From: Escherichia coli | GTDB taxonomy: Bacteria; Pseudomonadota; Gammaproteobacteria; Enterobacterales; Enterobacteriaceae | NCBI RefSeq assembly: GCF_048403405.1 | Contig: NZ_CP183137.1 | Length of the DNA: 44,716 bases | Strand: one strand, 5' to 3' | Part shown: positions 1-6,000 of the stretch, piece after piece | Numbering within the stretch: position 1 is the stretch's first letter | How the letters are laid out: every line of letters starts with the position of its first letter | Program-made: the position numbers

Positions 1-3000
1 AGAAACGGGCGGTTGCCCGCCCGTCTCCGTCATACTTCATCCGCCATAATGCGCCACATTGTCGACTATCCACGCAGGTCCGGTGACTTCCGGCAGCTCA
101 TCGTCATCTGTCGGGGAAGACCATTCCAGTTCCCCCCACAGCGCATCAACGAGCTCTCCGCGCTCATACAACTGCCAGCCACAGAAATCACAGCCCTGTT
201 CGGCATACCAGTGCTCCAGCGTGCAGCTGAAACGGCGGCTTAATTCTGCAATAACGTCGCTTTCCGGCTGACACCACGGCGTGTCGAAATCAACCTGAAT
301 GAAGTTGTCTTCCTGACTACTGATATTCACCTCATACCCCACAGGCCACTTCACGCCATACCGTTCCGTATACCAGTGATATGCAGAAGGAACACCGTTC
401 AGAACACCACCGTTAAAGCCATTCACTTCAACATCCAGGCGGGTCGGCAGAACCGTCAGCAGGTCAAACGGCATGGTTTTTTCCGGCAGTACGTTGTCAC
501 ACAGACGGTTCCACCACACCGATACATCCTCGTTACTCCAGAAGCCACACCAGTCACCTCTTTTTGCGGTGAAAAGTGCGGTGATGGTATCCCTGACCTC
601 ATCCGGTAATCCTTCCCAGCGACGCTGGCCAGTACCACTCTGCAGCCAGAGTTCATGCAGCATCAGGCAGTTTTGTACATCCAGTAGCACACCGTTCTGC
701 AGGTGTGTCAGCCAGCGGGTGAACGCGATATTCTCCGGCGATACAACACCACGTCCGGCAGCCGTCAGTCCGGGGCACGGTTCAAACTGCACATCTTCAG
801 TGGTCTGCAGAAGTCCGGCACTTCCGGCCAGAAACAGCTGAATACCTTCATTTGTGGCGCGGCGATAAAATGGTGTGACTGCACCGCTGGCCAGTCGTTT
901 AATCTCAGCAATCTGTGCTGGTTCACCAGAAAAATGCATACGATTTGAGCACCAGTTTGGCATGGGAATTCTCCTCTCACATGCGGCCTCCATCAGGCCG
1001 TGCCGCACCTGTAACCGGGCGACCGCATACGAATGCAGGTGCGGCCCCGAAGCCGCAGCGCGTGGAGGAGGAACGACGAAACGTGACCGGGTGAGGAGGC
1101 CGGCGACAGCGACACACTTGCATCGGATGCAGCCCGGTTAACGTGCCGGCACGGCCTGGGTAACCAGGTATTTTGTCCACAGAACCGTGCACAAAATGCT
1201 GTGGATAAGCTGGACACAGCACTCCACAGCAGGCATACAGCCACACTCTCAGAGAATTGAGCATTTTTTAGTCAGAGCAATGACATTTGACTGTGTGCGG
1301 ACTCAGTTATTAGAATGCTGTATATGCATACAGCAAAAGAAAAGGGAGATGAGAACATGATCCGCATTGAAATTCTTTTCGACCGCCAGAGCACAAAAAA
1401 ACTCAAATCAGGCACACTTCAGGCGCTACAGAATGAAATCGAACAACGTCTGAAACCACACTACCCGGAAATCTGGCTGCATATGTGGGAATCCCCGTCC
1501 TTCAGAGTGAGGAGCTGTCAACCAGCACTCCATTGACTCAAATGACGGGAAACGCGGAAATCTAAAAATTAAGCCGCACACCCCGAGAAATTTTGCAGGT
1601 TTCACGGAGCGAGACTTTTTTAGATCAGGTTTTGCATCTTCACCCTAGCCGCTTTCAGACGGGCCTGTTCACCGTCATCCTGAGAGTGTTCTGGTGAAAC
1701 TGTACTCTGAAGCCCTCCCAACGCCTTCAGTACCTCTTTTAAATCACCGGAGGAGGGTTTCCAGCCTGTTATCCTGGCAATCTGACTAATGACCTCATCC
1801 GCATTCAATTCTCTGGTGAATAGCGCGGTTAACACGGCGGGAATTCGCTCATCAAGCTGATGCATTATCAGGCCGGTTATCAAAGCCTGCCGATATAACT
1901 CCCCCCGTTTTTTCCGGGGAACAGTTTCGATTTCAGCCAGTGCAAGACAATCGGCAGAGTCCTCCGGGTGAAGGTAGAGTGAAAGTTTTTTCCTTTCTTC
2001 GCCTTCGTACATCGATTACTCCTCCGCTTTGAAGCGTGCAATAGCCTGGACCAGCGCTGTCTGAGGTTCATCCATAAGAACCACCTTTTCGCCAAGGTGG
2101 TTCCATGCCTTACGAACAGCATCAGCAATGAGTGCAGCCCCGCCACCGACAATATATACGCGGTTTACGTTTCGATACTGCAGCAAATCATCAACAACTA
2201 GCTCGCCCAGTTTATTTATCGCTGTATCAATGGTATCCAGCACCAGATTTAGTTTAGAGACCTCATTTACAACCTGCCCCACAAAATCCAAGTTATTCCT
2301 GTTTTTGATCAACTCGTCAGCAATCATTGGACTGGTATCACTGCTGGCCATTTTCAGTGCAGTGAGCGTGGCTTTCGTGACCATTGATACACCAATATCA
2401 GGATTACCATGTACAGCCGAAACATCCTCAAACTGGCCAACAATAACCCCGACATCCAGAGTTGTACCACCGAGATCGATAACCAATGATTTTTCGTACT
2501 GACCAACGTTGTCAGCAACTAGGCGAGTAAATACAGCCGGGAGTGATTCAGGCATCACTTCAACGCTTTTAATGGTAAAAGTTCCCCCTTTGTTCAGGGT
2601 GACTTCTCGCATCAGGTTGCGAATTTTTCTCTCAATGTTAAGCGTATTTTTCTGGCAGTCGGCCGTGTAAAACTCGCTGATAGGTAACGTAACGGTGAGA
2701 TCGATCTCCTGGGGTTCAATGCCACTGTTCAGTAATGCGTGGTGAACTGCCAACACATTTGTATCAGAGTACTGATACTCAATATGAGTCGTGCTGATCG
2801 CATCTTCGCTGACCGGGTCGTAGGTATATTTACGGCCATCAAGCAGATAGTTATAAGTACGACTGCTGCCTAAGCCCTCGACTTTCCAGTTATGGCGAAA
2901 AGAGTTCACTGATACCGCACTTTTCAGCGTCTTGCCTTCAAACCAGGCAAGTTTCACATTTGTAGAACCATCATCGCAAAAAATTCTCATACCATCTCCA

Positions 3001-6000
3001 TTTATACTCAACTTGAGTATTAATCTTTACACAATAACTACTCACATTAAGTAAATACGCTCATAAACCACAGGTAAGTACTCAAGCTGCGTACTTCACT
3101 TGGGCAGTTAACTACTCAATTTGAGCATTATATCATTTATCTTGCAGCAATCTAGCATTTATCTAGCATAAATCTTGCTGCAAGATTGCACACAAAAAAA
3201 GAATGCAGCAAGATTGCTGCATCCCGGATTAATAGCCCTGTTTTTCCTTATATGCCTCAACTGCTTTTTCCAGAACTTCCACCAGTTTCAACCCCTCACG
3301 CTCTGCGATATCCCGGATCTCTTGGTCGAAAGCAGGTGTGACACGTGTTGCAAATGCCAGCGTCCTGTTTGTTTTTCTGGCAGAACGGCCATCGCGGCGG
3401 GTATATACCTCGGTCACTGTTTGCGTAACCACAGGCTCATGGTGCACTGGCGATGAGTCTGCCTGTTGTCTCTGAACATCAGTGGCAGCGACAGCCGGAG
3501 CTATCTCAGGCGCATTCAAGCTGGTAGCCACTTCGTCGGGGCCCGGGGGTACCCCCAACCCACTACGGGTTCTTTTAGTTCTAAGTTTTGACGCATCAGC
3601 CATTACTCTTCTCCAATCTTATCGATGAGTGCCTGGATAAGTTCATCAGCTCTCTCGTTTAAACCTTTATAACGTGTTTCTGTCACAGCGAGTCCTGAAT
3701 TCATCGCTTTTCTGTATGCTGGCTTCTCAAAAAGGCATCCAGATAAAGTTTCATAACCTGCTTCACTGATATATGCACGAGCATCCAGCTCTTCCGCTTC
3801 GGTACCTACCCGGCTTAAAGCGAAGACCAGTTTTGAACGTGGTATACCTTCTTTTACCAACGCGTTGAAAACTTTAATTGCCGGGACAAGATCGTCAAGG
3901 GAGGCTCCCGTTGGCTGGACGATAAGGTCGGCGACCTTAGCAATTTCTGAAGTACCTTTACTTGCACGAGCAGGGCCATCAAGAATCAGAAGGTCAAAAT
4001 CGCCGGCAGATTCTATCGCCTGCTTTGCTGTTGAAAACACTTCAACGGAAGCAACCGGTGACAAACCAGCTGACAGACGTCTACGATGCCACTCAGCACT
4101 CGTTGCCTGTTCCAAGTCGAGATCAGCTAATTTTGTTTTGATACCACAGGCGGATGCTTCACGCGCTAACGCTCTCGCTTTAGTGCTTTTGCCCACACCA
4201 CCTTTCTGAGAAATAAAACCAACTATCCAGGCCATTTAGCCCCCTTTACTTGCTGCTATCTTGCAGCAAACATCAATATAAACCAGATTGAGATTAGGTA
4301 GAGTAACTCTTCCAGAACAAGATAACAGCTTGCAGCAAGATTGCAACAATAAATAATCTTGCTACTTAGCAGAGTGCTGGAATTGACAGCCGAATACTTG
4401 TGTCACGTTAACAATAAAAGAAACCTCATTCAGAATCGCATCGACAGATGAAGCAAGATTGCCGCAAGATTGCAGATAGCATAACATAAACAGAGCGCTA
4501 GGCCGTATGTGTACAGCATGATAGCTGCAATCTATTTTATTGCTGCTATCATGCTGAAATATCATTATTAGAATCAGGCAGCCCTCGCCGCAGCCATGTA
4601 ACTGTGCGTAGCGAGCGAACTGGCGAGGAAGCGTTCCGGCAGATGGCTCTTACGCTCGGCACAAGAAGAGTTTCCCATCCAGGCAAGTACTATGGGTTGT
4701 CAGCGCCAGAGATATAAGACTGTTCTGGCCTGAGAACGTGGCCTCTATGAGTTTGGTGCTCTATCTTCCATAGATGAATGCACCAGCTCCCCCTTGACTG
4801 AACCGCGAATACGGCTTTTTAACGCCTCTCAAGTTGTTTTATCAGCGCTACCGCATCGGCTTCCGGCATGGCGAACTGCACACGATGACGCGCCGCGACA
4901 TCCAGCGCAAATACCTTCGTGTAGACCTCCGTTGAGCTGATGGACTTATGCCCCATCAGACTCTGCAGGACCTTCAGCGGTATACCGGCATACAGCATGT
5001 GCATCGCATAGGAATGGCGGAACGTATGTGGCGTGACCGGGACAGAGAACGTCACTCCATCAGCGGCAGCGGCGGCAACCGCCTCCCCAATCCAGGTCCT
5101 GACCGTTCTGTCCGTCACTTCCCAGATCCGCGCTTTCTCTGTCCTGCCTGTTCGTTTATTACGCCGTTCCATGGGGATTTTCAGTGTGGCCACCATCGTC
5201 TGCAGCTGGCTGACGTACCAGGCGTCAGAGAGCGGAACCAGCCGGTGAGTCTGCTGACCGGCGGGCATTCTTCCTGCCGTCCTGGCGGCTTTTTCGGTCC
5301 GCTGCTTCAGAGTGGCCAACTGCACAAACGGATACGGAGGCGCAAGCGAAAAATCCCCCCGCGTCAGCGCCAGTGCTTCATTAATGCGCGCACCGGTGTT
5401 CCACAGTGTGGCCAGCAGCATTTTGCGGCGCAGATCCGGCACGTAATGGAGCAGGGCGCTCACTTCAGGGGCCAGCAGGTATTTTGGCAGTTCATCATGA
5501 ACCATCGACATCTGGCGGAGTGCCAGCGCTGCCGGATAATCGATGGCAACAGGAAGCTGAGCAGCATCCCGGGCATGGTGGATCGGTGCCGGCAGGTGCT
5601 GCATATCAGTGTTCACTCCACGGGGAAACGTCGGGCAGGTTTTCCACAACACGGTACTTTCCCGGATAACGGAGCTGGTTACCTCCACGCGTCCAGACGG
5701 TGACAACAAAACCCCCTCCCTGGTTGTTTTCGGGGAGCAGGCGATCGCACTGCTCACTCAGCATGTGGATCACAAACGGCGCATCGCTGCCGTCTTCAAA
5801 TACCAGTTCCAGCGCATCGCGGCCATGCAGTGCTCCCTTACTGATGATGACGTACTCAGCCCCCCGCATCTCCCTGAGTAAATGTTTTGCCGCATCCGGG
5901 ACAAGCAGCCTGGCTGCGCCGGCATTCCAGCTGAGGTAGACATATCCGGCCTGCGCCTGTACAGACTGCCAGTAATCCGTTCCGGCGACAGCCTGACCTT

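Follow-up and report, generated by a model that had tools for sequence, protein, structure and literature searches.

When a plasmid carries two partition systems side by side, the question arises whether both are complete and how they are wired to each other. We studied this question for a locus within a stretch of 44,716 nt from Escherichia coli (assembly GCF_048403405.1, contig NZ_CP183137.1), which is referred to as the window in the following. Read along the minus strand from 4560 to 1620, the locus comprises a repeat array, parA, parB, a hairpin terminator, a second array, four ParR-type palindromes, parM and parR (Table 1). A first-pass annotation of the sequence had described two complete partition systems in tandem on one strand, and all four open reading frames (ORFs) are indeed found on the minus strand where it had placed them. 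We consider it likely that the four genes constitute a composite two-motor segregation module, organised on this strand as two separately transcribed units, which would provide both a type Ib ParABS and a type II ParMRC system.

Every sequence-level part of the two types was found, as had been claimed. With regard to type II, the product of parM has two profile matches, StbA_N (2e-68) and the C-terminal domain of ParM (3e-43). It aligns with R1 ParM (E = 1e-81) including the motifs DDGST, PES, DLGGTTLD and GGGA. That is, an actin-fold ParM with intact nucleotide-binding motifs is followed by a downstream ParR, and palindromes surround the predicted promoter. ParR matches PF10784 at 3e-28 as well as the structure of pB171 ParR/StbB (PDB 2JD3; E = 8e-34 over residues 4-129, equal length). 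ParM and ParR belong to the pB171 par1 clade. The start of parM used here is that of the Prokaryotic Genome Annotation Pipeline (PGAP), with GGAG as its Shine-Dalgarno sequence, whereas the gene extends to a TTG at 3011 in the ORF list. The ParR-type palindromes are spaced by 34/40/34, where the copy at 3005-3019 closely precedes the Shine-Dalgarno sequence of parM. The parM coding sequence contains a fifth word similar to a ParR box (TACTCAATATGAGTC at 2776-2790, 2 mismatches), which may be due to chance. The order parC-parM-parR and a promoter embedded in ParR sites (predicted in the window) are shared with ParMRC (StbAB) of R1/R100. R1 parC consists of ten 11-bp direct iterons, whereas the window shows four 15-bp palindromes over 123 bp.

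With regard to type Ib, ParA carries its Walker A motif at residues 11-17 and matches the CbiA, MipZ and ParA profiles. The alignment with NF041546 (ParA_partition) covers residues 4-205 and yields 93.6 bits, which is under the model cut-off of 180. The best solved-structure match is the distantly related TP228 ParF (4DZZ, E = 5e-7). The parB ATG overlaps the parA stop codon (TAATG). Relatives of ParB are restricted to Enterobacterales and mostly unnamed. Their alignment shows an invariant basic motif in the N-terminal part (MADASKLKxKR..LGxPPGPDEVATSLNAPEIAP), a middle linker of varying length and an invariant C-terminal part (RRDGRSARKTNRTLAFATRVTPEFDxEIRDIAEREGLKLVEVLEKAxEAYK). Here, a beta-alpha-alpha (ribbon-helix-helix, RHH) domain is predicted at residues ~82-122.

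We also compared structure models of ParB with known folds. In the AlphaFold2 model of the monomer, the two C-terminal helices reach a predicted local distance difference test (pLDDT) score of 87-90, and nearly all Foldseek matches of this model are RHH proteins (CopG, Arc, MatP, CdbA, ParG) with root-mean-square deviations of 0.6-1.0 Å. For a linked dimer, i.e., two C-terminal domains joined by a Gly/Ser linker, AlphaFold predicts strand-helix-helix twice. In the PDB, this model is best matched by a permuted single-chain Arc (probability 0.99); TraY, DndE and AvtR, all tandem-RHH proteins, come next. The assignment of ParB as an RHH protein is supported by these models but not proven. A flexible basic tail combined with an RHH domain is the layout of ParG and other type Ib centromere-binding proteins; ParG itself, an RHH protein whose N-terminal tail is flexible, binds tetramer boxes arranged in arrays. 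Type Ib is thus represented by a small Walker ParA, a predicted RHH ParB downstream of it and iterated boxes overlapping the predicted promoter. Compared to the TP228 system (ParF/ParG/parH), the likeness concerns ParA and ParF, while ParB and ParG show no detectable sequence similarity, the box sequence is another one, and TP228 has no adjacent type II system.

The second claim concerned a repeat family on both sides of the parA operon, and this family is real and non-random. Its unit consists of alternating TTGC and GCAA tetramers with a period of 11 bp (TTGCnGCAAnn; 11-11-11 spacing within 3131-3190). The word GCAAGAT has 11 copies in the 44.7 kb, 9/11 of which are within the two arrays (3139-3214 and 4258-4470) that cover 0.95% of the window (binomial P = 3e-17). 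An exact TTGCNGCAA is found six times in the window and five times inside the arrays (P = 5e-10). The 15-mer TTGCAGCAAGATTGC is exact at 4330-4344 and has copies with one mismatch at 3175, 3203 and 4459. On the downstream side, the array had been said to abut the parC-like palindromes, and the gap between these palindromes and the first ParB box is only 4 bp. On the upstream side, the repeats proposed for 4240-4560 are present, but they do not form a single array. Rather, they are distributed over four clusters (4250-4269, 4330-4362, 4451-4475 and 4514-4556), the first of which is a two-box operator-like site directly ahead of the parA Shine-Dalgarno sequence. We also considered the boxes as replication iterons; this was rejected, since there is no rep gene nearby in the window and the same boxes flank parAB on other replicon types.

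The fourth cluster is a distal palindrome that has the par boxes on one side and, on the other, a gene for a tyrosine recombinase (4819-5604, minus strand; Phage_integrase, ResD-like position) and a 150-aa ORF (5606-6058, same strand). This palindrome could serve ParB as a distal site or, instead, the adjacent recombinase as core site.

Whether the four genes form one or two transcription units depends on the promoters and on the sequence following parB. Both promoter candidates were picked by eye and then checked for conservation. The predicted parA promoter sits wholly within ParB boxes, and the respective pattern TTGCAA-N16/17-TAnnnT is kept in 7/8 loci (6/7 lineages; absent in Pectobacterium). 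In the predicted parM promoter, the last ParB boxes overlap the -35 and the spacer, and the -10 directly adjoins the first ParR palindrome. Its pattern TAGATT-N16-(TG)n-TATAAT is also kept in 7/8 loci (6/7 lineages; absent in Morganella). The hairpin after parB has an energy of -16.2 kcal/mol (z = -4.05) in the window. Respective hairpins in six lineages range from -12.8 to -17.8 kcal/mol (z = -3.7 to -6.1), and a T-run follows in 5/6. We read this hairpin as an intrinsic terminator and therefore treat parAB and parMR as separate transcription units.

Alternatively, all four genes could form one hybrid operon, in which transcription starting at the parA promoter reads through into parMR and accounts for most of its expression. 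The intergenic boxes would then act as attenuator or centromere instead of forming a promoter region of their own. The genes are close, on one strand and kept in order in seven lineages, and the predicted parM promoter is under the threshold of a generic scan, all of which would fit such an operon. We nevertheless regard it as improbable given the stable hairpins and T-runs described above. Furthermore, the first ParR box directly adjoins an extended -10 (TGnTATAAT) that is conserved, and a homologous junction is found in pB171, where parM has no co-directional gene upstream.

Apart from the window, the order parA-parB-parM-parR was found in Klebsiella IncFIA/IncFII plasmids (~91% nucleotide identity), in a Salmonella plasmid family (~68%, further contigs included) as well as in Morganella, Pectobacterium, Hafnia and Erwinia persicina. 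The four-gene order together with both box types recurs in seven diverged lineages, all co-directional. In every lineage, TTGC/GCAA boxes are located upstream of parA with a two-box site right before the Shine-Dalgarno sequence, and a palindrome of box sequence begins 6-7 nt past the parB stop. Beyond that palindrome, several further boxes follow on the downstream side of parAB, and the final ParR-type palindrome is always found just ahead of the parM Shine-Dalgarno sequence. Erwinia typographi (L012) is the sole relative found with parAB of this family but without parMR; here, a umuC fragment directly follows parB. No relative without parAB was found, where parMR-only loci were not searched for systematically.

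Table 1. Features of the par locus in window coordinates. For the genes, the amino acid identity to the window across lineages is given together with the nonsynonymous to synonymous rate ratio (dN/dS) and the synonymous divergence (dS) between the window and the Klebsiella module.
Feature	Coordinates	Strand	Description	Identity	dN/dS	dS
parA	3603..4235	-	210-aa type Ib Walker ATPase, deviant Walker A KGGVGKS, without N-terminal DNA-binding domain	77-98%	0.03	0.30
parB	3229..3603	-	124-aa centromere-binding protein candidate; PGAP label 'hypothetical protein'	63-94%	0.14	0.21
parM	2016..2990	-	324-aa actin-like ATPase	69-97%	0.07	0.23
parR	1620..2012	-	130-aa adaptor, Plasmid_stab_B family	42-93%	0.22	0.14
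type II parC (putative)	3005..3127	-	four 15-bp palindromes, TACTCAAnTTGAGTA-like: 3113-3127, 3079-3093, 3039-3053, 3005-3019			
upstream ParB-box region (parC1-like)	4250..4475	-	TTGC/GCAA clusters 4250-4269, 4330-4362, 4451-4475			
downstream ParB-box array (parC2-like)	3139..3222	-	11-bp phased units 3131 to 3190			
distal palindrome	4514..4556	.	18-nt arms, 94% complementary, 7-nt centre; box-like words GCTGCAAT / ATTGCTGC			
predicted parA promoter	4319..4346	-	-35 TTGCAA (4346..4341), 16-nt spacer containing TTGCTGCAA, -10 TATCTT (4324..4319)			
predicted parM promoter	3127..3154	-	-35 TAGATT (3154..3149), 16-nt spacer containing GCTGCAAGAT, extended -10 TGaTATAAT (3135..3127)			
intrinsic terminator after parB (as read here)	3190..3225	-	11-bp stem (3225..3200) of box palindrome ATGCAGCAAtcTTGCTGCAT, T-run 3199..3193			

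All four genes are under purifying selection (Table 1), and since their dS values are similar, the data are consistent with four genes diverging together. For the more distant lineages, synonymous sites are saturated and all ORFs are still intact, which argues against either cassette being a decaying passenger. This bears on the possibility that only one cassette is functional and the other one a redundant passenger heading to decay. In its favour, plasmids with a single par system are stable, only one of the two par systems of SCP1 made a difference under laboratory conditions (PMC13245405), and a single type Ib locus suffices in pESBL (PMC7602700). Still, we hold it to be very improbable for the window, where the four intact ORFs retain their catalytic motifs with dN/dS values of 0.03-0.22 per gene and where the pair was kept together across enterobacterial families while synonymous sites became saturated.

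How might the two systems act on the same plasmid? Here, we infer ParB-box binding, the centromere activity of each array, both promoters and cross-repression from the sequence. A ParB RHH dimer with a disordered basic N-terminal tail would bind the phased TTGC/GCAA boxes flanking parAB, such that partition complexes could form at two centromere-like sites. The tail would stimulate the ATPase of nucleoid-bound ParA, by which plasmid copies would be positioned and spaced. ParB on the upstream boxes would furthermore cover the parA promoter, i.e., parAB would be autoregulated, and transcription of this first unit would end at the hairpin whose stem is the box palindrome. In the second unit, ParR would bind the four palindromes between promoter and parM and repress its own promoter, while the ParR complex would cap ParM filaments, which push plasmid copies apart. 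Since the downstream array overlaps the parM -35 and spacer, ParB probably represses parMR too. In the tandem orientation, such repression would be the counterpart of the cross-talk of pB171 that the title of Ringgaard et al. (2007) names; there, too, a ParB array lies beside the parM promoter.

The double par locus of pB171, where par1 is the type II parMR system and par2 is of type Ib, reportedly goes back to Ebersbach and Gerdes (2001) and Ringgaard et al. (2007). The first-pass annotation had described its arrangement as divergent, in contrast to the tandem order in the window, and its parAB as flanked by two centromere sites. Both points hold. A plasmid search with ParR of 2JD3 led us to a pB171-type locus (L003) whose ParR is 100% identical to the crystallised protein of pB171. 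This locus reads parB<-parA<-parC1->parM->parR with 228 bp between the divergent parA and parM, and par2 is described as parC1-parA-parB-parC2 (PMC4270457).

Comparing the window with the pB171 par1 and par2 sequences, as had been proposed, reveals a relation for parMR only; the two parAB belong to different lineages with unrelated boxes. In both plasmids, type Ib and type II loci are adjacent, parAB is flanked by ParB repeats, and the parM promoter has a ParB array (putative in the window) directly upstream. The window ParM is 67% identical to the pB171-type ParM. The central region of L003 contains CTCAAATTGAGTA and CTCAGATTGAGTA words akin to the ParR palindromes of the window, and the first such word directly follows a -10-like element, as it does at the -10/ParR-box junction of the window. 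On the other hand, the window has its units in tandem with a terminator between them, whereas the pB171 operons diverge from one shared central parC1. That is, the array beside parM is the one downstream of parB in the window rather than a shared upstream parC1. Further differences are found in ParA (29-30% identity), ParB (no alignment at E <= 100), the boxes (TTGC/GCAA at 11 bp vs. unrelated short repeats in the pB171 type) and the number of ParR palindromes (four vs. two in pB171). We therefore rejected the window parAB as an orthologue of pB171 par2, for which ParA identity is too low, ParB is unalignable and the parC1 words are unrelated. Judged by sequence, the window's type Ib cassette is a separate, uncharacterised lineage.

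We also compared ParM and ParR of pB171 with the proteins of the tandem modules, and both nest within the tandem-module diversity. With regard to the Salmonella tandem proteins, ParM/ParR identities are 79%/60% for pB171 and 71%/45% for the window. For the Salmonella, Hafnia and Erwinia proteins together (L009, L017, L019), pB171 shows 75-79% (ParM) and 51-60% (ParR), compared to 71-75% and 45-48% for the window. Since pB171 ParM and ParR are closer to these tandem-module proteins than those of the window are, the ParMR cassette has changed its type Ib partner and its orientation during evolution. Taken at the level of sequence comparison, one ParMR clade is found beside at least two different type Ib systems and in two orientations, each time with a (putative) ParB array directly upstream of its promoter.

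A further reading takes this one step further and sees parA-parB-parM-parR, rather than as two independent systems that are neighbours by chance, as a functionally integrated, hierarchically wired module with parMR as built-in backup and with partner swapping by the ParMR clade. The downstream array would then combine three roles, namely those of a second centromere, of the DNA counterpart of the parAB terminator and of the parMR operator. As an operator, it would restrict expression of the actin-type motor to low ParB occupancy, e.g., in cells that the plasmid has just entered by conjugation, when copies are few or where ParA functions poorly in the host. The ParMR clade including pB171 par1 would have evolved a dependence on a neighbouring type Ib ParB array, swapping ParAB while keeping the junction. 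We put this forward as a tentative extension that is possible but not the likely case.

The reverse simplification is that the boxes are mainly operators plus a terminator, i.e., the upstream boxes autoregulate parAB, the downstream ones terminate or regulate parMR, and one array or neither is centromeric. The coincidence of upstream boxes and predicted promoter, the use of the first downstream palindrome as terminator stem and the scattering of the upstream boxes in small clusters instead of a single long array all agree with it. Nevertheless, we consider this unlikely, since arrays on both sides bind ParB in pB171 and pESBL (PMC4270457, PMC7602700), 4-5 phased units lie beyond the hairpin in the downstream array, and the terminator stems retain box sequence across lineages instead of drifting freely.

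The IncI1 plasmid pESBL belongs to the same plasmid group. In its type Ib ParABS, parAB is flanked by repeats to which ParB binds (Daniel et al. 2020, PMC7602700), and the function of this system was shown by transposon sequencing (Tn-seq), mini-F stabilisation, green fluorescent protein (GFP) foci and electrophoretic mobility shift assay (EMSA) (PMC7602700). It resembles the window locus in its backbone neighbourhood (beside the DUF1281/imp region) and in having a small Walker ParA, repeats upstream as well as downstream and a small ParB for which no homologues are known. In contrast, ParA is only 26% identical, ParB is unalignable, and the pESBL locus is without parMR. The pESBL octamer GATAACAA shows no cluster anywhere in the window. 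We thus rejected the window locus being the pESBL par locus, based on the different ParAB lineage, the different octamers and the absence of parMR from the latter.

Some observations speak against the two-motor model. First, neither control region yielded a minus-strand promoter in a generic scan. Both candidates are below its threshold, so the case for both promoters is their conservation. Second, ParB has no match in Pfam, NCBIfam, the PDB phmmer search or the PDB profile search, and its models are of moderate confidence, i.e., the strand region has pLDDT values of ~45-65 and the Foldseek E-values of the monomer are non-significant. Third, the type Ib locus was sufficient in the Tn-seq of pESBL (PMC7602700). 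One system can therefore be enough.

Double par loci of type Ib and type II are already known (pB171; PMC13245405), and a 2026 survey lists 971 PLSDB accessions that combine type I RHH-ParB with type II systems (PMC13245405). For the head-to-tail order, the ParAB lineage with its boxes, the box-built terminator and the cross-family conservation, we found no prior account in a search that was thin on subscription papers. No sequence-based family recognises the window ParB, which leaves an annotation gap. Surveys that seek RHH-ParB by similarity to pB171 ParB/omega (the method of PMC13245405) would probably count a single type II system here. The general picture of how partition works is unchanged by the module. 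It provides, however, a second, independently arranged case for asking if an actin-type system is under the control of a neighbouring type Ib ParB, and its boxes, promoters and terminator are precise targets for stability, incompatibility and curing work.

The module is carried by resistance and virulence plasmids, i.e., IncI1 (ColIb-P9-type), pCoo-type and Klebsiella IncF plasmids. It was found in ~300 PLSDB records, pCoo and pETEC_74 among them, and in 123/5,426 complete E. coli genomes, always on plasmids. Considered separately, the parAB part matches 387 and the parMR part 315 PLSDB records. The ~2,000 plasmid matches of the initial search were rejected as a module count, since ~1,600 of them match the flanks only.

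IncI1 plasmids from E. coli and Salmonella (ColIb-P9/TY474p2 type) carry the par region with 100% identity. On these relatives, PGAP labels the four products as ParA family protein, hypothetical protein, ParM and plasmid partitioning/stability family protein. Adjoining parR, a DinI/ImpC-like remnant of 59 aa is located at 1358-1537 on the plus strand. In other tandem modules, umuD/umuC (impAB) are convergent to parR, and pESBL carries impCAB ahead of a different parAB. Hence, impAB was apparently deleted in the lineage of the window.

The whole window matches the mosaic plasmid pCREC774-3 (NZ_CP183144), where the layout agreement was traced to ~24,500 in window coordinates, which is the extent of the stretch compared. 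The IncI1-type segment stops at an insertion sequence, IS26, with virulence cargo beyond. That is, similarity to the IncI1 backbone runs out at ~6100-7579 near an IS26 copy (transposase 6857-7579, minus strand), and the remainder is mosaic cargo. Virulence-type cargo is found at 11652-30255, including a Fiu-like TonB-dependent receptor (11652-13970), ybiX and def. It also comprises a 1369-aa S6-peptidase autotransporter (serine protease autotransporter of Enterobacteriaceae, SPATE; 16043-20152, minus strand) and a fimbrial operon of F4/K88-like type, whose usher is encoded at 27452-29788. Finally, the plus strand at 33150-35059 carries a 177-aa ORF and, after it, a gene whose 455-aa product contains an AGS_C sensor domain (9.6e-7). 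Both may form a defence gene pair that resembles a cyclic oligonucleotide-based antiphage signalling system (CBASS), and they are flanked by transposase genes of the IS91 family (Y2_Tnp) as well as by one for a Tn3 transposase.

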